Origin: a virus
Taxonomy: Duplodnaviria; Caudoviricetes
DNA: 64,000 nt
IMG/VR virus record: IMGVR_UViG_3300002026_000124
Coordinates: 1-64,000 of that record
Reading direction: 5' to 3' (one strand)
Under the pieces are notes generated by a model. That model did no database searches, had not been told where the DNA came from, and saw nothing but the letters and a program-made list of their open reading frames with translations. Positions 5,558 through 63,332 of this stretch are shown in pieces. The position numbers and the translations under genes were made by a program. Position 1 is the first letter of the stretch, and each line of letters starts with the position of its first letter.

Positions 5558-6352
5558 TTAAAGTAATTCTTTCTTAAAATAATGTAGATTAATTATGTCA
5601 TCGTTGACGGTTTTCGGATTATAAATCATTTCACGAATTTTTTGCATTGCCTTCTGTACTTTATCTTCACTTCCATCTTTTTCTGCACTTTCCAATATTC
5701 TCAAACTTTCACTTTTATATTCTTCAAGTAGTTCTTGTTTTTCGCTAGTATTTGATTTTATAAGTAATTTTAACAGATTCTTATCACCTTCATTAAGGTC
5801 ATCATATTTTTCATTAAATTTATTAATTGCTATTTGAACAACATCGTCATTTACCAATTTTAATTCAGATTCAACAATTTGTTTTTTCTCTTTCGGCTTT
5901 TTTATGTAGTTTAGAACGGTTGTAAATGATTCATGAATGCTATCAACATCAATTTTATCATAATCGCTTAATGATTCTGTAATTAAATCATCAATTGCAT
6001 TATATAAATTAACTTTATCTAAATTATAATCTGTGTTTTGGGGAATTGCTTCCTCCATAATGAAATTCTTTAACTTTTCACGTTCAGCATCTATTTCACC
6101 AATTGTATATACCTCAAACAACTTAATGTTATTGTCGATATAACGTGTCGCACTTAAGTCATTTTCAATGTGTTTATTCTCAATATTATTAAATATTTTG
6201 AACTCCAATTGTAATATTGGAGAATTCTTAACAACATTGAAAAAATCGGTTGTTAATTTTTTTGATTCTTCAAGTAAATTATTATTAAAATAAGATTCTT
6301 TTAATTTATTTGAAACTATCAAATTAACAATACCTATGTTTACATTTTTCAT
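5558..6352 (-). CDS. Hypothetical helical protein downstream of the portal
   Basis: 264-aa ORF with upstream GTATTTAT motif; head-module context. Confidence 0.6.
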   Translation of the reverse strand: MKNVNIGIVNLIVSNKLKESYFNNNLLEESKKLTTDFFNVVKNSPILQLEFKIFNNIENKHIENDLSATRYIDNNIKLFEVYTIGEIDAEREKLKNFIMEEAIPQNTDYNLDKVNLYNAIDDLITESLSDYDKIDVDSIHESFTTVLNYIKKPKEKKQIVESELKLVNDDVVQIAINKFNEKYDDLNEGDKNLLKLLIKSNTSEKQELLEEYKSESLRILESAEKDGSEDKVQKAMQKIREMIYNPKTVNDDIINLHYFKKELL

Positions 6353-6424: not shown

Positions 6425-8467
6425 CTATACCTCCAAATCTCCAATGTCGTTAATTTCAACATCTTCTGAATCAATTATTTTCTGTTCGCCATTAAGACTT
6501 ATATTTTTTTTAAGTAAATTATCAATTTCATTAATCATATTTTCAGCGTCTCGATTTAATTTATCATTAATTTTATTATTCTCGCTAATAATTTTTTTAT
6601 TTTTACTTTCTTTTTTTCTTTCAGGTTCAATGCTACTATTATAAACCAATTTTTCGATTTGTTTATTATAGTCATCTTCACTCAAAACCCTTCTACTCCT
6701 AACACTATCACCCACAACAGGTGGTAAATCACTTGGTGACTGATTAGGTAAGCCGCTCGTTTCAGGACCACCCATTGGTGGAGCACCGCCACCTGCAGGC
6801 GGCATACCACCCGCTTCAGGACCGCCCATTGGTGGAGCACCCATACCACCGCCCGCAGGTGGCATACCACCTTGTTCAGTTCCACCGCTTGCACCGCCCG
6901 CAGGCATTCCTTCAATTGGTTCACCATATCTCTTATCAATATCGGCAAATAAACCAGATTTCTTAATAACAACTGGAGAATCTTGAAGTTCTTGTTGTAT
7001 AACCTTTTCCATTTTCTGTTGTTTAAGGTCTTCAACAATTTCCCTATCACTCATATTGAATATTATACGTTTTGCATTGGTATGTGACATTGCTGCGATA
7101 CCACCTTCATTACGTGTTAATTCTGTGTATGTTTGTGCCTTATCACGCATCAATTCAGATTTCAATAAATCTTGTTGTGTGCTTGGATTTGTAAGGGTAA
7201 GTGTAAAATCTTTAATATCGTCTCCAGAATAACCCAATAGGTACAGATGAATCATTCCCATTTTATTGAGTTCCTGAATTATGGCTTGTTGAATACGACT
7301 AATTTTCTTTGCGAAACGAATATCGTATTGTGCCATATTTTTTCCCGCACCTGCAGCATCTTGGAAACTTAAAAATGGTTTAGGAACACCTAATCCAACA
7401 AATAAATTATCACGTAGATATTCAATGTCCTGTATTTGGTCAAGGTTTGATGCACCCGGAAGTGTTTCAATACCAGTTTGGGTATTTGCGTTTCTTACAG
7501 GTAAGAAATAATCTTCATCGTTACCTAAAATGTTAAATCTATAATCAATTTGTCCGTCATTTGGTGCAACTTGTGCAATTTTTTTAAATTTTGTAGCTAC
7601 TTTGTAGATATAATTTTCAATATCATCTTCATCGATGTTTCCAACATCAATTTTAAATACTTTTTTCTCTCCTGCACGTATGATACGATAAGTTAACATA
7701 GCATCTTCAGCCATAACTAGCTGTCTAAATACTCTACGTACTTTATTAAGTACTGATGAACCATATGGCAAGTACTTATCGTCACCAAGCAATCTAAAAT
7801 GGGCAATTTCAAATACGTTGAATTCATCACCCGTCATTCGTTCTCTAAATTTTACAAATGGTTTCCCATTTTGGATTCTTTCAAATCTTTCAATTTCATA
7901 ATTAACGAGTTGTTTTACGTGAGTGATTCCCTTTTTTCTTTCTCCGTATAATAATACAAAATTATCACCGTATTTAACAGTATTTCTTACCCAAAATGGT
8001 AAGTTAACATTCACGTTAACAATATCATAAAAGAATTCTTCGAGTATAGTCTTGATACGTTCTTTATTTGAATAAATATTTAACATTTTACCATTAAAGC
8101 CAATGGTTGTAGCTTCTTCCATAAATAAATCTAATGCACTACTGATAATTGGATAATATTCCATACCCTCATAATCAATATATGCTGGAAGTCTAGCAGC
8201 TTCATATTGTAATGCTTTCTGAAATCCCCTATCAGTGGTTCTAAAAAATTTATTTTGAAGTTCTCTTTTCTGTTCTAACTCCAAACCTTTCTTATGAATT
8301 TCTTCCGGAGTGTTACCCTTAATAATTACTTTGTTTTCTTTAGATGGGATAGCACTTACAGAAGACTGTAAACTTGGATTTTGTTCATGAAAACCGAAGC
8401 CATCTAAATTAAGAAATTTATTAAGCTGTTGATATATCGTTAATTTATTTTGTTTTTCGTCAGCCAT
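6425..8467 (-). CDS. Portal protein (T4 gp20-like)
   Basis: Motifs YIDYEGME..PIISSALD, AHFRL...PYGSSVL, EDAMLTYRI.RA.E..VFKIDVG, EDYFLP, IETLPG..NL..I.DIEY, LGVPK; Gly/Pro/Met low-complexity C-terminus. Confidence 0.93.
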   Translation of the reverse strand: MADEKQNKLTIYQQLNKFLNLDGFGFHEQNPSLQSSVSAIPSKENKVIIKGNTPEEIHKKGLELEQKRELQNKFFRTTDRGFQKALQYEAARLPAYIDYEGMEYYPIISSALDLFMEEATTIGFNGKMLNIYSNKERIKTILEEFFYDIVNVNVNLPFWVRNTVKYGDNFVLLYGERKKGITHVKQLVNYEIERFERIQNGKPFVKFRERMTGDEFNVFEIAHFRLLGDDKYLPYGSSVLNKVRRVFRQLVMAEDAMLTYRIIRAGEKKVFKIDVGNIDEDDIENYIYKVATKFKKIAQVAPNDGQIDYRFNILGNDEDYFLPVRNANTQTGIETLPGASNLDQIQDIEYLRDNLFVGLGVPKPFLSFQDAAGAGKNMAQYDIRFAKKISRIQQAIIQELNKMGMIHLYLLGYSGDDIKDFTLTLTNPSTQQDLLKSELMRDKAQTYTELTRNEGGIAAMSHTNAKRIIFNMSDREIVEDLKQQKMEKVIQQELQDSPVVIKKSGLFADIDKRYGEPIEGMPAGGASGGTEQGGMPPAGGGMGAPPMGGPEAGGMPPAGGGAPPMGGPETSGLPNQSPSDLPPVVGDSVRSRRVLSEDDYNKQIEKLVYNSSIEPERKKESKNKKIISENNKINDKLNRDAENMINEIDNLLKKNISLNGEQKIIDSEDVEINDIGDLEV

Positions 8468-24185: not shown

Positions 24186-24333
24186 AAAGTCATTGCTTAA
24201 TTAGGAATTAAGTTACGTCTGTAAAGTCAGAAATGGTTTTTGAAATTTTATCGCCAGTTAGTGGTTAAGTAAAATTTAGACATAACAAAATGATTATTAT
24301 GAATGCACTCCTTAAAAAAGAGTGCATTTTTTT
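24186..24333 (+). ncRNA. Candidate small structured RNA with terminator
   Basis: GTATTTAT at 24171; nested stems 24189-24294; terminator 24302-24333. Confidence 0.4.
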
Positions 24334-24370
24334 ATTAAATATAAATATTTTTATTTTTTTTCGAAAAAAG

Positions 24371-24401
24371 TTTGTATTTATGATTTTAAGTCGTACATTT
24401 G
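24371..24401 (+). promoter_or_regulatory. Bacteroidota sigma-A-type promoter of tRNA operon 1
   Basis: TTTG (24371-74), N19, TACATTTG (24394-401). Confidence 0.8.
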
Positions 24402-24430
24402 TACTCTGTAATAGTTAAACATAGTTTGAA

Positions 24431-24505
24431 ATGAAAAATTTAGTAAACATACAACCCCAGCCGCAACAACATCCAAAAGATGGTGAATGGGAAAAGTTTG
24501 CTTAA
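24431..24505 (+). CDS. Attenuator leader peptide 1, MKNLVNIQPQPQQHPKDGEWEKFA
   Basis: Hand translation; QPQPQQHP run matches the downstream Pro/Gln/His tRNAs. Confidence 0.85.
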   Translation: MKNLVNIQPQPQQHPKDGEWEKFA

Positions 24506-24532
24506 ATTTTCAAGAGAAGTTTTAGGTTAATT

Positions 24533-24564
24533 AAACCCCATTCGTGACGAGTGGGGTTTTTTTT
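24533..24564 (+). terminator. Attenuator terminator 1
   Basis: aaaccccattcg/cgagtggggttt stem plus T-run; 5' arm also complementary to leader 24485-24491. Confidence 0.85.
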
Positions 24565-24572
24565 GTTTTTAT

Positions 24573-24648
24573 CGGGATATAGTACAGTTGGTAGTATGCG
24601 TGCTTTGGGAGCATGAGGTCGTCAGTTCGAGTCTGGCTATCCCGACCA
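24573..24648 (+). tRNA. tRNA-Pro(TGG)
   Basis: Cloverleaf, loop TTTGGGA, C1-G72, encoded CCA. Confidence 0.95.
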
Positions 24649-24649
24649 A

Positions 24650-24743
24650 CAGGAAGTGAGCGAGAGGTTGAAGCTACTGGTCTTGGAAACCAGTCACGGC
24701 ACAAAGGCGTTGTCGTGCGTGGGTTCGAACCCCACCTTCCTGA
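24650..24743 (+). tRNA. tRNA-Pro(TGG) with 25-nt variable arm
   Basis: Acceptor caggaag/cttcctg, A73, stem ctggt/accag, loop CTTGGAA. Confidence 0.75.
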
Positions 24744-24813
24744 CATGTGGACTGGTTAGAATTTACATACAAGGTCGTCCGTAATTGGAAATGATGCGTA
24801 GGAAATTCAACAT

Positions 24814-24888
24814 GGTGGGTATAGCTTAGTTGGTTAAAGCGTCTGATTGTGGTTCAGAAGACCGTGGGTTCGAACCCCACTATCCACC
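24814..24888 (+). tRNA. tRNA-His(GTG)
   Basis: G-1:C73, loop TTGTGGT. Confidence 0.95.
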
Positions 24889-24896
24889 CTTTTTTT

Positions 24897-24972
24897 CGAG
24901 TAGTTGGGGAGTTGGTCACCCCGCCACATTTGGGATGTGGAGAACTCGCAGGTTCGAATCCTGCCTACTCGA
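24897..24972 (+). tRNA. tRNA-Pro(TGG)
   Basis: Acceptor cgagtag/ctactcg, loop TTTGGGA. Confidence 0.9.
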
Positions 24973-24974
24973 CT

Positions 24975-25049
24975 GTGTTAGGCGTAGATGTTGGCATCTT
25001 CACTTGGCTGTGAACCAAGGCTTCGGGGGTTCGATTCCCCTCTAACACC
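24975..25049 (+). tRNA. tRNA-His(GTG), no encoded G-1
   Basis: Stem cttgg/ccaag, loop CTGTGAA, C73. Confidence 0.75.
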
Positions 25050-25141
25050 TAAAAGCGTGATAAAAGAGTTTATCACGTTTATATGTGATTGAATATAAAA
25101 TTTACTAATCAGCTTATATTATATTCAATCACATATAATAC

Positions 25142-25214
25142 TGTCTCGTGGTGTAATTGGCAACATGTTTGGCTCTGAACCAAAAGAGTAGGGGTTCGAA
25201 ACCCTTCGAGACAA
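25142..25214 (+). tRNA. tRNA-Gln(CTG)
   Basis: Acceptor tgtctcg/cgagaca, loop CTCTGAA. Confidence 0.9.
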
Positions 25215-25219
25215 CATAT

Positions 25220-25300
25220 TATCCTTTGGCAGAATGGTCATTGCATCGCCCTTTGAAGGCGACACCGAGAGGTTTGCAGGTTCGAGTCCTGCAGGGATAA
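25220..25300 (+). tRNA. tRNA-Gln(TTG) with long variable arm
   Basis: Stem tcgcc/ggcga, loop CTTTGAA, extra arm caccgagaggttt. Confidence 0.8.
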
Positions 25301-25417
25301 CAAAAAGTTTTTGGAAATCTTGTATTTATTATTATCTTTGCATAAATATTGCTGGTATAATAACACGTTGTTATAGAATAGTACACGATGCATACTATCG
25401 CCAACATTTTTTAATAT

Positions 25418-25490
25418 TGTCCTGTGGTGTAATTGGCAACACGTCTGGTTTTGGTCCAGAAGAGTTCAGGTTCGAGACCTGACGGGACAA
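25418..25490 (+). tRNA. tRNA-Gln(TTG)
   Basis: Stem tctgg/ccaga, loop TTTTGGT; internal promoter TTTG-N19-TATCTTTG at 25310-25340 upstream. Confidence 0.9.
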
Positions 25491-25503
25491 CAAATTTATT
25501 ATT

Positions 25504-25653
25504 ATGGGAAAATTAAGAGTTGGAAACAAGGAAAATTCTTTACTTAATGGTGAATGGGCAGGTCATGTTAGAAAAGATGGTAAGGAATGGACTGCAAGAA
25601 AACGCAGAAACCTTGACAAAGAAATAATTAAAAAGGAAAGCAATGAGTTATAA
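25504..25653 (+). CDS. Small basic hypothetical protein (49 aa)
   Basis: Hand-translated MGKLRVGNKENSLLNGEWAGHVRK...; overlaps the next start. Confidence 0.45.
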   Translation: MGKLRVGNKENSLLNGEWAGHVRKDGKEWTARKRRNLDKEIIKKESNEL

Positions 25654-26065
25654 TTTATTCTTAGATGACTACAGATTTCCAAAGGAAACTGTTGATTACA
25701 TGTTTATTCCAATCTACACTAGTGAAGAATGGATAATCGTCAGGAATTACTATGCCTTTATTACAATAATTCAAAAGAAAGGTCTTCCGGATATCATTTC
25801 TTTCGACCACGACCTTGCAGATGTTCATTATAAGAATCAGGTTTTCGATTATAATGATGAAACCCTGGAAAAAACCGGATATCATTGTGCAAAATGGCTC
25901 ATTGACTATTGTCTCGATAATAATTTAGAAGTTCCCACAAGAATATTAATACATTCAATGAATCCTTACGGGACACAGAATATCAAATCAGTTTTCGAAA
26001 CCTACTTCAAGGTTTATGGTAAAGAATATAGTCCAATTAGCATTACCCCAAGCATGCGTAGATAA
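25643..26065 (+). CDS. Cyclic-phosphate-processing receiver-like domain protein
   Basis: LFLDD.R.P, ISFDHDL, KTGY..AKWL and IHSMNP.G motifs. Confidence 0.65.
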   Translation: MSYNLFLDDYRFPKETVDYMFIPIYTSEEWIIVRNYYAFITIIQKKGLPDIISFDHDLADVHYKNQVFDYNDETLEKTGYHCAKWLIDYCLDNNLEVPTRILIHSMNPYGTQNIKSVFETYFKVYGKEYSPISITPSMRR

Positions 26066-27365: not shown

Positions 27366-27396
27366 TTTGTATTTATCAAAAATGTCTCTATCTTTG
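27366..27396 (+). promoter_or_regulatory. Bacteroidota sigma-A-type promoter of tRNA operon 2
   Basis: TTTG (27366-69), N19, TATCTTTG (27389-96). Confidence 0.8.
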
Positions 27397-27428
27397 CAGA
27401 GAATTTAATTAGTGAAAACAATAAAGTT

Positions 27429-27542
27429 ATGAAAAATTTACTCAACATATTATCAGTAGTCCTAGTGGATGCGCTCTTATGGGCAGCGGATGAGGATATG
27501 GTATATCGTGTCGGGTCGAAAGATACTGGAGTAGGTTATTAA
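27429..27542 (+). CDS. Attenuator leader peptide 2, MKNLLNILSVVLVDALLWAADEDMVYRVGSKDTGVGY
   Basis: Hand translation; 17 of residues 8-25 are L/V/D/A/W/E/M, matching the downstream tRNAs. Confidence 0.85.
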   Translation: MKNLLNILSVVLVDALLWAADEDMVYRVGSKDTGVGY

Positions 27543-27562
27543 TAACTGAAACAATAAAAACG

Positions 27563-27592
27563 AAACCCGACCCGAAAGAGTCGGGTTTTTTT
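27563..27592 (+). terminator. Attenuator terminator 2
   Basis: aaacccgac/gtcgggttt stem, GAAA loop, T-run; leader 27511-27518 is complementary to 27568-27575. Confidence 0.85.
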
Positions 27593-28306: not shown

Positions 28307-28951
28307 ATGGCACGAAAAGAAAAAAAATATCACTTTATTTATAAAACAATAAACATCATAAATAATAAGTTTTATATTGGTATGCATTCAACAGACAATT
28401 TGAATGATGGATATGTTGGTAGCGGAACAAGACTTTGGTATTCAATAAATAAATATGGTAGGGAAAATCATAGATTGGAAATACTTGAATTTCATGAAAC
28501 ACGAATTATATTAAAAGAACGTGAAAAGAATTTAGTAAATGAGGATTTATTGAAAAATCCTATGTGCATGAACATAAAGATTGGTGGTGAAGGTGGATTA
28601 AATGGTCTTTCACAAGAATCAATTAAAAAAATACGTAAGGGTGCATCTGATTTCATGAAAATGAAGTGGAATGAACCAGAATTTAGAAATATGTGTTCTC
28701 AACGTTCTATAATTAAAATGAAAGAAAATCATAGACTTGGTAAAATGAGATATGATACGTTTATTGGTAAATCTCATAGTGAAGAAACAAGAGAACTTAT
28801 GAAAGTAGTTCATAAGGGAATGGGTATTGGTTCTACAAATTCTCAATTCGGTACTTGTTGGATAACTAAGTGTGGCGTAAATAAAAAAATTAATAATAAT
28901 GATTTGTCCTTATATATTAGTGATGGTTGGTGTAAGGGTAGAGTCATATAA
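28307..28951 (+). mobile_element. Free-standing GIY-YIG homing endonuclease (Seg-like) in the tRNA array
   Basis: FIYKTIN...KFYIGMHST...Y.GSG; NUMOD3-like GKSHSEETR. Confidence 0.85.
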
Positions 28952-29952: not shown

Positions 29953-30029
29953 GGGGCAGTAGTGACAATTGGCTAACACGACAGATTTGCACTCTGTAAA
30001 TGGGGTATCATACATCCCCTGCTCCACCA
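29953..30029 (+). tRNA. tRNA-Ala(TGC) with non-canonical T-loop
   Basis: G3:U70, loop TTTGCAC, encoded CCA; T-loop ATCATAC. Confidence 0.75.
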
Positions 30030-30098: not shown

Positions 30099-30917
30099 GT
30101 GAATACTTGGAAAACTAATAGAAAAACAATTTTAATTAATTGTGAAAATTGTGGAAATGAATTCAAAAAAACATTATCTGAATATAATCGTTCAGAAAAA
30201 TTAAATAAAAAACATTTTTGTTCATTAAAATGTAATAATGAATCTAAAAAGATTAAACTAAAATTCTGTTTACAATGTAATGAAGAGTTTATTCCCGATA
30301 AAAATAAAACTAAGTTCTGTTCACATTCTTGTAACGCAAAATATAATAATAAAAATAGAAAGGGTATTAAATACAATATAAGTGAAAATGGTTTAATTGG
30401 ATTAAGGGAATCGTATAAAAATAATTTCGGATATGATATTATAAAATTTAGAAATAACTATTATCAATCACAGAATTATTGTAAAGAATGTAATGAACCT
30501 ATTCCATATGAAAAAAAGAATCATGTTTTTTGTAATCGGGATTGTAAAAGAACATATGATAGAAAGAATTTAACTGAATATCAAAAATACTATAAAGATT
30601 GTCAATTTAAATTTGGTTTATCAGACTATCCAAATGAATTTGATTTCGAATTGATTAAAACACATGGTTGGTATCAACCAAAAAATCATGGCAATAACTT
30701 AGGTGGAATTAGTAGAGACCATATGATTTCAGTAAAATATGGATATGAAAATAATATTAGTTCTGAGATAATTAGTCATCCTGCCAATTGTCAATTGATG
30801 ATTCATAATGAGAATATTAGTAAATATAAGAATTGTTCAATAACATTAGAAGAACTAATGATTAAAATTGATAATTGGAATGAAAAATATTCACAAATAA
30901 CAATGGGTTTAACATAG
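30099..30917 (+). mobile_element. Zn-finger/HNH-type homing endonuclease
   Basis: Repeated CxxC...FCS..C modules and C-terminal RDHMISV...HPANC...H..N..K. Confidence 0.75.
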
Positions 30918-42732: not shown

Positions 42733-42821
42733 GGCGGGGTGGTGGAATTGGTAGACACGCTGGACTTAAAATCCAGTGGGCAGTAATGCCCGTGTGGGTT
42801 CGAGTCCCATCCCCGCTACCA
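42733..42821 (+). tRNA. tRNA-Leu(TAA)
   Basis: Canonical class II, loop CTTAAAA, encoded CCA. Confidence 0.95.
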
Positions 42822-42836
42822 AAAATTAGAAAAATT

Positions 42837-43109
42837 ATGGCGAAATTAAAAGTGCCTGTGGATGTACTGTATGAAAAATGCAGGAAAGTCATTAATCATG
42901 AAATCCGAATTGAATCTCGTGAAGAAGCAAGAGAAATTATGCTACTTACTACAGAGAAGCATCGTAATGATTTCGTCAAATATCACCAACAGGACATGGG
43001 TAATATTTGTTGCATGGTTCTTGATGCAGCAAAGCAAGACTTGGTGAAAGAAGGAAAATTAGTTCTGAAACCCGAAGATAGTTTCGGACACCCATTAACA
43101 TTTGAATAA
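42837..43109 (+). CDS. Hypothetical protein
   Basis: Start moved to ATG 42837, downstream of the tRNA. Confidence 0.5.
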   Translation: MAKLKVPVDVLYEKCRKVINHEIRIESREEAREIMLLTTEKHRNDFVKYHQQDMGNICCMVLDAAKQDLVKEGKLVLKPEDSFGHPLTFE

Positions 43110-43149
43110 TATGGCAATAATTTATTAAAAAAACTGTAAAGAAAAGACT

Positions 43150-43332
43150 ATGATAGATATTAAAGCGGGTGAAGGTTTATGCGAATATATTCGAAGGGCA
43201 AATGGTATGAAAAAAGAAATATCGCAATTAAGTGACATACCAAAAATTGTAAATAGTGATAAAATTACAATTACTGGTGGTGCTGAATTTATTGGGAAAT
43301 TTTTGAATGCGTTACCGGAAGAATATAAATAA
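43150..43332 (+). CDS. Small hypothetical protein
   Basis: 60-aa ORF. Confidence 0.4.
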   Translation: MIDIKAGEGLCEYIRRANGMKKEISQLSDIPKIVNSDKITITGGAEFIGKFLNALPEEYK

Positions 43333-43339
43333 TTTTAAA

Positions 43340-43422
43340 GTCCTTGTGATGAAATTGGTAGCACGTGATAGTTTCAAAAACTATTGCCTTCGGGCGTGAG
43401 GGTTCGAGTCCCTCCAAGGACA
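43340..43422 (+). tRNA. tRNA-Leu(CAA)
   Basis: Stem atagt/actat, loop TTCAAAA, long variable arm. Confidence 0.88.
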
Positions 43423-43446
43423 CTAATTTAATTAAAATTTAAAACG

Positions 43447-43496
43447 ATGAAAGAAAAATTTAAAGTCTTGTAGGTTGCTCTAATGCGACTACAAGA
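43447..43496 (+). promoter_or_regulatory. uORF MKEKFKVL* with hairpin covering the next initiation region
   Basis: ATG 43447 to TAG 43473; 12-bp stem 43466-43496 ends 2 nt before ATG 43499. Confidence 0.5.
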
Positions 43497-43498
43497 AA

Positions 43499-43819
43499 AT
43501 GAGAGTAAAAACTATTTCAAAGACCACTACTAATCGTGGTGTATTCAATCGTGCGTATAAAGAACTTCTTGAACGCAAAGGTAGAATCCATTGTTCACGT
43601 TGCAAATACCATAAAGGTGAAAACTATGAAGGTAAATGGTATGGAGAATATATTTATGACGATATGAATACCTGTCGTGGTAAATCAGGAACTCATACAA
43701 AGTTACCAAATTGGAAACTTGTTTCAAAACAACCAAAACAATGGATGAAAAAACCCATCAAATTTGTTGATAAACAATATGGTGGGTACAGGTACATTTA
43801 CGTTGACATCAAATGGTGA
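43499..43819 (+). CDS. Small very basic protein with CxxC
   Basis: K/R-rich 106 aa. Confidence 0.55.
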   Translation: MRVKTISKTTTNRGVFNRAYKELLERKGRIHCSRCKYHKGENYEGKWYGEYIYDDMNTCRGKSGTHTKLPNWKLVSKQPKQWMKKPIKFVDKQYGGYRYIYVDIKW

Positions 43820-43830
43820 TGTCAACACAT

Positions 43831-43902
43831 TGCGAGTTAGCTTAGTGGTAAAGCATCACCTTCATAAAGTGGAGACCGAGGGTTCGAGTCCCTCACTCGC
43901 AA
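43831..43902 (+). tRNA. tRNA-CAT (Met or Ile2)
   Basis: Acceptor tgcgagt/actcgca, loop TTCATAA, one stem mismatch. Confidence 0.8.
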
Positions 43903-43945
43903 CAAAAAACCCATCGAATTCGATGGGTTTAGATTTCCAATATGT

Positions 43946-47752: not shown

Positions 47753-48850
47753 TTGCACATGAACTCATTTTTAGAAAAAGTCGATTGGAATGTATTAAAT
47801 ACATATATCGACAATAGCTTAATTATCTCAAACAAGCATCCAGAATATGATATTTGGATTCTTAATTATTCGCCAAAGGTTCAGTCTAAGAAATTTTGGG
47901 ATGAATATACTTTGTCATGCCGTGGACTCGTTATTGATGCCGAAGGCAATATCTTAGCACGACCATTTCAAAAATTCAAGAACTATGAAGAATATGACCC
48001 ATCAGAATTCGATTGGTCTCAGGACTTCGATGTGTTTGAAAAAATGGATGGCTCATTAATTATCTTATTTTACTACGAACCACGTATGGAATGGATAATT
48101 GCGTCAAGGGGTTCTTTCGCATCTGAACAAGCGATTGAAGGAAGAAAAATGATTGAGTCTAATACATATAATCATTTAGACGTTAAAGAAACATATTTGT
48201 TCGAAATTCTGTATCCAGAAAATCGCATTGTTGTCGATTACGGTAATAGAAGAGAATTAGTATTATTAGGTAGAGTTAACACTTTAGATGGTTTTGAATT
48301 ATATTATGACGATTTAGTTTCAATGCATTCAAAATATTTTACCGTTGTAAAGAAATTTAATATTAAGTCTTTCGTTGAATTAAGAGAATTGATAACTAAG
48401 GGTGAAGAAAACAAAGAAGGATTTGTAATTAGGTTTTACAGTGGTTTAAGAATTAAGATGAAATTTGCTGAATATGTTAGACTACACGGAATCATAACAA
48501 ATGTCTCAAATCTAGTTGTTTGGGAACATTTGAGAGACAAATATGAATTTGATGAATTGCTTGATAGAGTACCTGACGAGTTTTATCAGTGGCTTAATAA
48601 AACAGTAGCAACATTAAATAATGAATTCTACAATATTGAGAGATTGGCGTTGAAGGAATTTATTAGGATTTATTATAATGACGACACTGTTATTCGTAAA
48701 GATTTTGCAATGGAAGCACAAAAAAGTGCTTATCGTTCAATTTTATTTAAAATTTACGATAAAAATAGTTACGATGAAATCATATGGAATATGATAAGAC
48801 CTGAATATAGTAAACCATTTAAGGATGGTTATGTAGATGAAACTTTATGA
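47753..48850 (+). CDS. RNA ligase, T4 Rnl1 family
   Basis: CRGL...ARPF.KF.N, EKMDGS (motif I), FEI..PENRIVV, EGFV and K.K motifs. Confidence 0.88.
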   Translation: MHMNSFLEKVDWNVLNTYIDNSLIISNKHPEYDIWILNYSPKVQSKKFWDEYTLSCRGLVIDAEGNILARPFQKFKNYEEYDPSEFDWSQDFDVFEKMDGSLIILFYYEPRMEWIIASRGSFASEQAIEGRKMIESNTYNHLDVKETYLFEILYPENRIVVDYGNRRELVLLGRVNTLDGFELYYDDLVSMHSKYFTVVKKFNIKSFVELRELITKGEENKEGFVIRFYSGLRIKMKFAEYVRLHGIITNVSNLVVWEHLRDKYEFDELLDRVPDEFYQWLNKTVATLNNEFYNIERLALKEFIRIYYNDDTVIRKDFAMEAQKSAYRSILFKIYDKNSYDEIIWNMIRPEYSKPFKDGYVDETL

Positions 48851-51782: not shown

Positions 51783-51875
51783 ATGAAAATTTTTGGCACA
51801 TATTATTACGGTAAAAAATCTTATAAGAAACATCTTACGAGAATCGGGAATGTTATGTCCAAAAAGCAAAAATAA
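51783..51875 (+). CDS. Attenuator leader peptide 3, MKIFGTYYYGKKSYKKHLTRIGNVMSKKQK
   Basis: Hand translation; YYYGKKSYKK run matches the downstream Lys/Tyr tRNAs. Confidence 0.85.
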   Translation: MKIFGTYYYGKKSYKKHLTRIGNVMSKKQK

Positions 51876-51902
51876 GCAATGATTTTTGCATAAAGCACAG
51901 AG

Positions 51903-51930
51903 ACCCGATTCGAAAGATTCGGGTTTTTTT
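51903..51930 (+). terminator. Attenuator terminator 3
   Basis: acccgattc-GAAA-gattcgggt plus T-run; leader 51841-48 is complementary to 51904-11. Confidence 0.85.
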
Positions 51931-51937
51931 GTTTTTA

Positions 51938-62116: not shown

Positions 62117-62147
62117 TTTGCAGATATTGAAACTTTATTTACCTTTG
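62117..62147 (+). promoter_or_regulatory. Bacteroidota sigma-A-type promoter of tRNA operon 4
   Basis: TTTG (62117-20), N19, TACCTTTG (62140-47). Confidence 0.8.
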
Positions 62148-62189
62148 CGGAGTATTTAGTTTTATACAAGACATAAAATTTATAAAATA

Positions 62190-62318
62190 ATGAAATCACA
62201 AGTATCCAATATTAACATTTCGTCAACGATTAATAGTCGTAATGGAGAAAGTATATTCTGTTCAAGTTTTACAGGCAGAAATATAGCGGATACGGGTTCA
62301 GGATTTTTATCGTGTTGA
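62190..62318 (+). CDS. Attenuator leader peptide 4, MKSQVSNINISSTINSRNGESIFCSSFTGRNIADTGSGFLSC
   Basis: Hand translation; S10 I5 T3 C2 match the downstream tRNAs; remainder is rich in N/G/F/R. Confidence 0.82.
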   Translation: MKSQVSNINISSTINSRNGESIFCSSFTGRNIADTGSGFLSC

Positions 62319-62342
62319 AATAAACACAAAAAAATTAAAAAG

Positions 62343-62372
62343 AACCCGAATTCGCAAGATTCGGGTTTTTTT
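62343..62372 (+). terminator. Attenuator terminator 4
   Basis: aacccgaat/attcgggtt, GCAA loop, T-run; leader 62293-99 is complementary to 62342-48. Confidence 0.85.
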
Positions 62373-62388
62373 ATGTTCTTTTTATACT

Positions 62389-62513: not shown

Positions 62514-62547
62514 CTCCGTAAGATGTTCATTGACATGCTGGTTTTAT

Positions 62548-62622
62548 GCACGGATGGTCGAGTGGTCAAAGGCAACGCTCTGCAAAAGCGTACAATCGTG
62601 GGTTCGAATCCCACTCCGTGCT
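62548..62622 (+). tRNA. tRNA-Cys(GCA)
   Basis: Stem acgct/agcgt, loop CTGCAAA, U73. Confidence 0.93.
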
Positions 62623-62669
62623 CTGGGTCGTTTTCGTACTTTCTCAGTATTTATCTGAAAGTACAAATT

Positions 62670-63332
62670 ATGGCAAGAAAAGAAAAACAATATCATTTCA
62701 TTTATAAGACAACTAATAAGTTGAATGGTAAATATTATTACGGAATGCATTCCACAAATAATTTAAATGATGGATATTATGGTTCAGGAAAAAGATTGAG
62801 ACGTTCTTTGAATAAATATGGTAAAGAAAATCATGTTGTTGAATATCTTGAATTTCTACCCGATAGAAAATCGCTAATTGAACGTGAAAAAGAAATTGTT
62901 AATTTAAATGAAATTGCGAAAGAAGATTGTATGAATCTAATGGTTGGTGGAAAAGGTGGTTTTATTTCAGAACAGGCATTGAAGGGAAGATATGCTGCAG
63001 ATAAAATTTTGATTGAAAAATATGGTGAGAATTGGCGAAGAGTTATTTTTAGAAAATATTTTGATGGTTTAAGTGATGAAGAAAAAGAATTAATTTATCA
63101 GAAAATGAAAAAAACTAATGAAATAAATGGATATGACTATAAAGGTTTTTTAGGAAAAAAACATTTACCTGAAACCATAGAAAAAATGAAAAAAAGTAAG
63201 AATGTTGGGATAAATAATTCACAATTTGATACTTGCTGGATTTATTCTGATGAATATAGTAAACCACAAAAAATTAAAAAATTTCAATTAAATGAATTTA
63301 TTAATCGTGGTTGGCGAAAGGGAAGAAAATAA
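62670..63332 (+). mobile_element. Free-standing GIY-YIG homing endonuclease, paralog of 28307..28951
   Basis: MARKEKQYHFIYKTTN...YYYGMHST; start moved to ATG 62670. Confidence 0.85.

Follow-up and report, generated by a model that had tools for sequence, protein, structure and literature searches.

In the leaders of the enterobacterial thr (thrL, for Thr and Ile), ilvGMEDA (for Ile, Val and Leu), trp (trpL) and his (hisL) operons, a short promoter-proximal open reading frame (ORF) with a run of regulatory codons is followed by an intrinsic terminator that lies before the regulated genes. The transcripts of these leaders contain four regions that pair as 1:2, 2:3 and 3:4, with region 1 lying within the sensor codons and the stop codon being placed so that a ribosome resting on it covers region 2. 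The thr and ilv operons are multivalent leader-peptide attenuators, in which one leader senses several amino acids, and the likeness drawn here rests on this established knowledge. In the present work, we analyzed an element that is predicted to share these traits, namely the head of a Pro/His/Gln transfer RNA (tRNA) operon, hereafter unit 1, found in the IMG/VR record IMGVR_UViG_3300002026_000124 of an uncultured giant phage of a Bacteroidota host. The window analyzed is the first 64 kb of this record, which has a length of 72,175 nucleotides (nt) and an estimated completeness of about 21%. Judging from its sequence, unit 1 has most of the attributes by which leader-peptide attenuators are recognized, i.e., an ORF with clustered codons, a terminator, a mutually exclusive 2:3 helix, selection on the coding sequence and a cognate operon, and it appears to differ from the described cases in its target genes. 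Whereas the enterobacterial leaders control biosynthetic enzymes, the phage unit would control tRNAs, a product that acts directly on the sensor. It further differs in being encoded by a phage, in having a Bacteroidota-type promoter, in possessing sister units that carry codons for up to 8-10 amino acids and in resembling the known leaders neither in sequence nor by Rfam model.

Other known systems are close to unit 1 in only some respects. The leader of Escherichia coli pheST and the His leader of hisS paralogues, the latter described in bacilli (PMC2965389), likewise use a leader peptide that reports on the supply of charged tRNA and control a gene of the translation apparatus; these leaders, however, control synthetases and sense a single amino acid, while the phage unit controls the tRNA genes themselves. 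T-box riboswitches likewise make termination dependent on whether a particular tRNA is charged, and they too act on genes related to translation; they sense by direct binding of uncharged tRNA, for which no ORF is required, whereas the proposed sensor of the phage unit is a translating ribosome. The T-box model gave no match in 24360-24575 even at E values of up to 10. In an Rfam scan of the leader, no family reached its gathering score, and the His, Trp, Thr, Leu and Phe leader families were not listed even at E values of up to 10. In Anabaena PCC 7120, a long array of tRNA genes (the trn operon) stays silent under normal conditions and is induced when translation is impaired (PMC8421152), under the control of the protein repressor TrcR (PMC10272220); attenuation, leader peptides and terminators go unmentioned in both papers. 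While this array resembles the phage unit as an accessory tRNA set that is switched on under impaired translation, it differs in having a protein repressor, in being chromosomal or plasmid-borne and in lacking any codon-set specificity.

No report of tRNA genes, be they phage or cellular, being controlled by attenuation emerged from our full-text literature searches. Why phages carry tRNA genes and how they control them are debated questions; the proposed reasons include compensation for codon usage, the replacement of host tRNAs that have been degraded and the evasion of anticodon nucleases, with phage tRNA arrays usually being regarded as expressed constitutively or temporally. We consider it likely that unit 1 is a ribosome-mediated leader-peptide transcription attenuator which provides demand-driven feedback on tRNA supply. 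The same interpretation had been offered by an earlier sequence-only reading of the window, and it is now supported by the order of the elements, by alternative folds, by conservation of the coding pattern in at least 22 other contigs and by six further units.

Elements and predicted folds of unit 1

The unit starts at a Bacteroidota-type promoter identified by pattern match (24371-24401), with TTTG at -33, TAcaTTTG at -7 and the ATG 30 nt downstream; this promoter and the leader, terminator and tRNA genes that follow it are on the plus strand. The leader ORF (24431-24505), recognized by reading of the sequence, in the ORF listing and in alignments, has 24 codons and encodes MKNLVNIQPQPQQHPKDGEWEKFA. 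Codons 8-15 (24452-24475) form the sensor run QPQPQQHP, encoded by CAA CCC CAG CCG CAA CAA CAT CCA, exactly as in the sequence-only reading. Region 1 (AACCCCA, 24453-24459) lies within these codons and is a copy of the terminator 5' arm, as seen in the minimum free energy (MFE) fold, RNAalifold and a repeat search. Region 2 (GAATGGG, 24485-24491), a putative antiterminator strand recognized in alignments and folds, spans codons 19-21, and it is followed by a middle hairpin (24495-24532, from the folds), which includes the stop codon (24503-24505) and is enclosed in the loop that 2:3 pairing creates. The intrinsic terminator formed by regions 3 and 4 (24533-24567; terminator scan, fold and RNAalifold) consists of a 5' arm (24533-24544), a loop (24545-24547), a 3' arm (24548-24559) and a T-run (24557-24564). 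Its stem has 11-12 base pairs (bp), six of them G-C, its run has eight T residues and its end is 5 nt before the first tRNA, which leaves no room for another promoter upstream of the tRNAs. On the other side of the unit, a hairpin with a T-run (24301-24328, not assigned to a strand; scripted terminator scan and sequence) closes the upstream, divergently oriented genes and is predicted to shield unit 1 from upstream transcription. With its own promoter and this upstream hairpin, unit 1 is therefore self-contained, and its tRNAs have no other obvious promoter.

Eight tRNA genes make up the operon, namely three for Pro, two for His and three for Gln, the last with one CTG and two TTG anticodons. 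Both the counts and the Gln anticodons given by the sequence-only reading were thus confirmed by ARAGORN. Seven of the genes were found by ARAGORN and by the Rfam tRNA model: tRNA-Pro(TGG) at 24573-24648, at 24650-24744 (95 nt) and at 24897-24973, tRNA-His(GTG) at 24815-24889 and 24975-25049, tRNA-Gln(CTG) at 25142-25215 and an 82-nt tRNA-Gln(TTG) at 25220-25301. The eighth, tRNA-Gln(TTG) at 25418-25491, was found by ARAGORN and is 92.7% identical over 55 nt to a tRNA-Gln of Cellulophaga phages.

The pairing that had been proposed from the sequence alone is borne out: all seven bases of GAATGGG (24485-24491) are complementary to CCCATTC (24537-24543) within the terminator 5' arm, and region 2 begins 9 nt past the last sensor codon. 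When the full leader is folded, the 1:2 hairpin, the middle hairpin and the terminator are obtained at -39.8 kcal/mol (z -3.4, 0 of 200 shuffles), with the sensor segments CCCA and AUCC pairing, in the MFE fold, with UGGG and GGAU around region 2. Folding the leader without its 3' arm, as it would be before the polymerase has reached that arm, gives a GAAUGGG-CCCAUUC 2:3 helix around the middle hairpin, at -19.1 kcal/mol (z -4.3, 0 of 200 shuffles). According to the repeat search, regions 1 and 3 are mutual copies (AACCCCA) and regions 2 and 4 are roughly so, and the predicted layout has the trp-style 1:2 / 2:3 / 3:4 symmetry. A CCCCA/UGGGG 1:2 helix is also predicted by RNAalifold, in which it is kept in 10-12 of 12 sequences.

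These elements exceed what is expected by chance. The eight-codon P/Q/H run has no equal in any of the six frames of the window, the runner-up having six codons, and when all 64 kb were shuffled with dinucleotides preserved, only one of 200 shuffles contained a run of eight or more. GAATGGG is found at only six places on the plus strand of the window, and its presence within about 100 nt before a terminator with a complementary arm is unlikely by chance, the probability being on the order of 1-5%.

In the mechanism that we propose, host RNA polymerase would start at the Bacteroidota-type promoter and transcribe the 24-codon leader, which a ribosome would translate as the polymerase nears the terminator. 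With charged Pro-, Gln- or His-tRNA in short supply, the ribosome would be slow on codons 8-15 and would melt the 1:2 hairpin; from the geometry, region 2 should be clear of the footprint of such a stalled ribosome. The freed GAAUGGG would then pair with CCCAUUC, the terminator would be blocked and transcription would enter the Pro/His/Gln tRNA genes. If decoding is fast, the ribosome would arrive at the stop codon and cover region 2 together with the 5' half of the middle hairpin, such that the 3:4 terminator could form and a transcript of roughly 150 nt be released. As the sensor codons are decoded by the very tRNAs that the operon produces, this would constitute a closed negative feedback loop. 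The natural signal could be depletion of host tRNAs, the codon demand of the phage or amino-acid starvation; the first two, but not starvation, would be relieved by the tRNA output. Comparative and structural evidence supports the attenuator reading, and from it we infer leader translation, stalling and regulated readthrough. If the reading is true, a leader attenuator that yields the tRNAs for its own sensor codons would be a direct and self-correcting gauge of decoding capacity, and textbook attenuation would be extended to tRNA genes, to phages and to Bacteroidota.

Conservation of the leader in relatives

Relatives were collected by using as anchor the 140-amino-acid protein encoded just downstream at 25643-26065 (Pfam cREC_REC), which returned 56 IMG/VR loci. 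In these loci and the window, a script found 48 places where a terminator lies no more than 60 nt upstream of a tRNA, and the ORFs ending before each of them were listed. From the anchor search, 13 distinct relatives carry a leader homologue with the consensus MKNLvNIQPQPQQHPQ..EWG.YA, always before Pro/His/Gln tRNAs. A strict pattern of the leader core matched in 31 IMG/VR contigs. Among 14 further loci from this pattern search that we examined (one of them, L060, is the same contig as L071 read on the opposite strand), a Pro/His/Gln cluster lies just downstream on the same strand in eight, while six have no tRNA. Two of those six matches, L077 and L082, are in GC-rich coding sequence and were rejected as chance matches. 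Taken together, the leader is present in at least 22 other distinct IMG/VR contigs, 13 of them from the anchor search, seven from the pattern search and two, L008 and L024, counted from contig names. For cultured relatives of this leader class (class 1), a distant blastn search against 50,697 phage records matched the tRNA-Pro part and not the leader.

The alignments of these relatives reveal different constraints on different parts of the unit. The promoter is kept in 13 of 14 aligned sequences, the row of the remaining one, L006, being unaligned over the promoter stretch. The leader ATG is invariant, and the 5' untranslated region is variable in both length and sequence. Changes in the sensor are nearly all CAA/CAG or CCN wobble changes, such that the P/Q/H identity is kept with few conservative exceptions, and the insertions and deletions in the leader are of 3 or 6 nt. 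Apart from the sensor and the part encoded by GAATGGG, the peptide is free to vary, in the flanks of the sensor as well as in its length and C-terminus. GAATGGG, including its wobble base, is invariant, as is CCCCATTC. The nucleotides of GAATGGG are unchanged in L006 as well, although a 2-nt shift there causes them to be read as V-N-G instead of E-W. The synonymous drift of the sensor, the in-frame insertions and deletions and the independence of GAATGGG from the reading frame therefore point to a coding constraint at the sensor and to an RNA-level constraint at region 2. Among the structural elements, three pairs of the middle hairpin have undergone compensatory changes, the 2:3 helix is 97.9% paired across relatives and never varies, and the terminator is conserved according to RNAalifold.

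Sister units and competing explanations

The window contains three further units of this kind, all on the plus strand. Unit 2 (27366-27589) has a promoter, a leader (27429-27542) and a terminator (27562-27589), with Asp, Glu, Met, Val, Leu, Ala and Trp tRNAs downstream; its tRNA-Ala(UGC) at 29953-30026, with an encoded CCA, was found by the Rfam tRNA model and missed by ARAGORN, and with this gene the operon fully matches leader 2, which has three Ala codons. Unit 3 (51783-51931) has a leader (51783-51875) containing YYYGKKSYKK and a terminator, followed by Lys and Tyr tRNAs. Unit 4 (62117-62373) has a promoter, a leader (62190-62318) and a terminator, followed by Thr, Cys, Ile and Ser tRNAs. 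Asn, Gly, Phe and Arg are likewise abundant in leader 4, and tRNAs for exactly these four amino acids are found beyond the edge of the window, as predicted if a leader lists the content of its operon, a prediction that can be used in annotation. Units 1 and 2 have a GTTTGTATTTAT...TAnnTTTG block in common at their heads, and their promoters and first seven codons are nearly letter-identical; the units therefore probably arose by duplication, with the sensor rewritten afterwards. A terminator before a tRNA-Tyr in L006 has no obvious K/Y leader and was not counted as a unit.

The cultured Cellulophaga phage phi4:1 (NC_021788) has three analogous units with unrelated leader sequences (5564-5632, 6524-6607 and 8270-8368), and it thus offers a system of like design for testing. 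The phage phi17:2, which is also cultured and, like phi4:1, infects Cellulophaga baltica, carries three such units as well. The leader MKIQRLHLQELEQP... precedes Pro, Glu, Gln, His, Leu, Leu and Arg tRNAs, the leader MQLTKTGITVIDKTKGARAY... precedes Ala, Lys, Ile, Gly, Met, Asp, Thr, Val, Arg, Met and Tyr tRNAs, and the leader MKTNYCTYNNSNWSFSY... precedes Tyr, Ser, Asn, Trp and Phe tRNAs. The second of these is annotated as gp075, a hypothetical protein whose start codon lies inside the promoter, and the other two are unannotated.

To relate leaders to operons, each leader was scored against the amino-acid set of each operon, with the amino-acid frequencies of the phage itself as background. 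This matrix test considered the seven leaders read directly from the sequence, as an automatic choice of the longest ORF had picked an overlapping ORF in the wrong frame in three loci and was not used for statistics. On the diagonal, where a leader meets its own operon, p values were 2.5e-4, 2.3e-3, 7.5e-5 and 7.4e-7 for units 1-4 of this record and 5.9e-3, 6.0e-4 and 1.2e-2 for the three phi4:1 leaders, while all off-diagonal values exceeded 0.5. The true assignment of leaders to operons ranked first among 24 permutations in this record and first among six in phi4:1.

The matrix bears on the rival explanation that survives best, according to which the unit is a true attenuator but a general switch for translation stress, which responds to any slowing or loss of ribosomes, be it due to host shut-off, antibiotics or global starvation, with the codon match being a matter of history. 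The alternative structures would indeed respond to any ribosome stalled before codon 16, and in the closest case in the literature, that of the silent tRNA array in Anabaena, it is translational stress in general that acts as inducer (PMC8421152). However, seven units present seven codon sets, each matching its own operon alone, and in class 1 the P/Q/H identity is kept while the nucleotides drift, which a non-specific sensor would not require. We consider such a general switch unlikely.

The alternative folds recur in the sister units as well. When the 3' arm is withheld, the 2:3 antiterminator folds in all seven units with a helix sequence that is specific to each unit, the z values being -4.3, -1.2, -3.5 and -5.9 for units 1-4 and -2.7, -2.4 and -5.5 for the phi4:1 units. 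In a second leader class (class 2), pairing amounts to 98.1% in the 2:3 helix, where two pairs are compensatory, and to 99% in the terminator, where three are; in the class-2 variant L022, the terminator stem and region 2 of the leader have changed together. The stop codon lies directly 3' of region 2 in most class-2 leaders, a position that agrees with a ribosome at the stop codon covering region 2.

Reading unit 1 as an attenuator has some weak points that should be considered alongside this evidence. No covariation was found in the class-1 antiterminator across the aligned relatives, as the helix is invariant. The 1:2 hairpin taken alone is no more stable than its shuffles (z -1.3), and before the 3' arm exists, the MFE fold picks 2:3 even with region 1 free, so that the ribosome-free state could be one of readthrough. 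Since the terminator of 11-12 bp is thermodynamically stronger than the 7-bp antiterminator, the switch must be kinetic, as it is in known attenuators. Among the relatives, L064 has a degenerate terminator, and the operon of L006 holds a tRNA-Phe while its leader has no Phe codon. The sensor of unit 1 itself has just one His codon. In L083 (leader 2286-2357, tRNAs 2440-2989), the variant leader MKNLLNNGRPQQHPQVDEWGYYV has the sensor G-R-P-Q-Q-H-P-Q, with CGC as the Arg codon, and precedes tRNAs in the order Arg(ACG), Pro, His, Gln and Gln; this sensor may have gained its Arg codon together with tRNA-Arg, although the case is only suggestive because Arg is also found outside the sensor run in other leaders. 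Finally, transcription-translation coupling is little studied in Bacteroidota, and our search of sequencing runs found the stretch in DNA runs only, all from microbial-mat metagenomes, and in no usable RNA run.

Some of these points would also be expected if the ORF had no regulatory role and the hairpin were a terminator that leaks constitutively, an insulator or an element at the 5' end of the tRNA precursor that serves its processing or stability. Such an explanation agrees with a strong, thermodynamically dominant terminator, with a class-1 2:3 helix that does not covary and with the lack of an RNA run containing the stretch. Nonetheless, it leaves unexplained the synonymous drift and in-frame insertions and deletions of a conserved ORF, the seven leaders that match their own operons, the invariant GAATGGG that is complementary to the terminator arm and the joint change of region 2 and terminator in L022, and we regard it as quite improbable. 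That the ORF encodes a functional small peptide, with its adjacency to tRNA genes being incidental, is less probable still, since although the ORF is conserved and an MKNL start is found in two leader classes, the sequence, length and C-terminus vary freely outside the sensor and the GAATGGG-encoded residues, the conserved nucleotides are read in another frame in L006 and the leader classes have no common peptide core.

Host, possible tRNA-repair context and further features

The window is AT-rich, with a G+C content of about 29-38%, and contains 32 tRNA genes according to ARAGORN, with 15 further ones lying beyond its edge. Its sole nucleotide match among the 50,697 phage records is the 55 nt of tRNA-Gln, found in the Cellulophaga phages phi4:1 and phi17:2. 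The phage also encodes an SprB-repeat protein. This protein, the TTTG-N19-TAnnTTTG promoters and the link to Cellulophaga point to a host within the Bacteroidota, probably a flavobacterial one.

Several neighbouring genes should be considered when asking what the attenuators respond to. The protein used as anchor above, a cyclic-phosphate processing receiver (cREC_REC), is encoded between operons 1 and 2, a position that it retains in 56 related contigs, and a T4 Rnl1-type RNA ligase is encoded at 47753-48850, 22 kb from the cREC_REC gene. Proteins of the cREC_REC and Rnl1 types are of a kind linked to the repair of cleaved tRNA. In relatives, a transfer-messenger RNA (tmRNA) lies a few kb after the tRNA operons (L012 19345-19718, L017 19840-20320, L021 17528-17881 and L071 6903-7267), with tag peptides that end in ...ELALAA, ...ELAMVA, ...ELAMAA or ...ELEMAA; no tmRNA was found in the 64-kb window. 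From their sequences, the cREC_REC protein, the RNA ligase and the tmRNA of relatives would fit a concern with tRNA damage. A more specific form of the attenuator reading, which we put forward only tentatively, is that the attenuators are codon-set-specific gauges of tRNA damage and form, with these three components, an integrated module that monitors and rescues the tRNA pool. A defence nuclease or phage-induced decay would then remove one set of host tRNAs, only the matching leader would stall and the phage would turn on exactly the replacement set.

Within operon 1, the sequence-only reading had proposed an internal promoter at 25310-25340, on the plus strand, that may drive the last tRNA-Gln independently. 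The TTTG-N19-TAnnTTTG consensus is indeed found there, but matches to this pattern are only about twice as frequent as expected by chance (10 versus 4.9), and the match is lineage-specific: it is not conserved in the relatives L017 and L013, as the equivalent gap between the last two tRNA-Gln genes has only 15-48 nt. Between tRNA-His and tRNA-Gln(CTG), the repeat search revealed an AT-rich inverted repeat of 23 nt that is 96% complementary (25079-25138, without strand), which may be a processing or partial termination site inside the operon; a weaker hairpin (25053-25078) precedes it.

A long tRNA-Pro(UGG) and a long tRNA-Gln(UUG) are kept across relatives. The former has 95-96 nt (24650-24744 in the window, 7485-7580 in L013, 8253-8348 in L017 and 6704-6799 in L021), and the latter has 82-84 nt (25220-25301 in the window). 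These lengths suggest long extra arms, which are normally confined to Leu, Ser and Tyr tRNAs.

A Leu-Leu-Met tRNA group (42733-43903) stands directly after a protein-coding gene, with no leader or terminator unit, and some tRNAs of this phage appear to be ungated. Among the tRNA genes there are also two ORFs that resemble endonuclease motifs in Pfam only weakly and below threshold (NUMOD3 at 28307-28951 and GIY-YIG at 62523-63332), as well as an ORF with no Pfam match (30099-30917); the tRNA region of phage T4 is alike in having ORFs interspersed among its tRNA genes.

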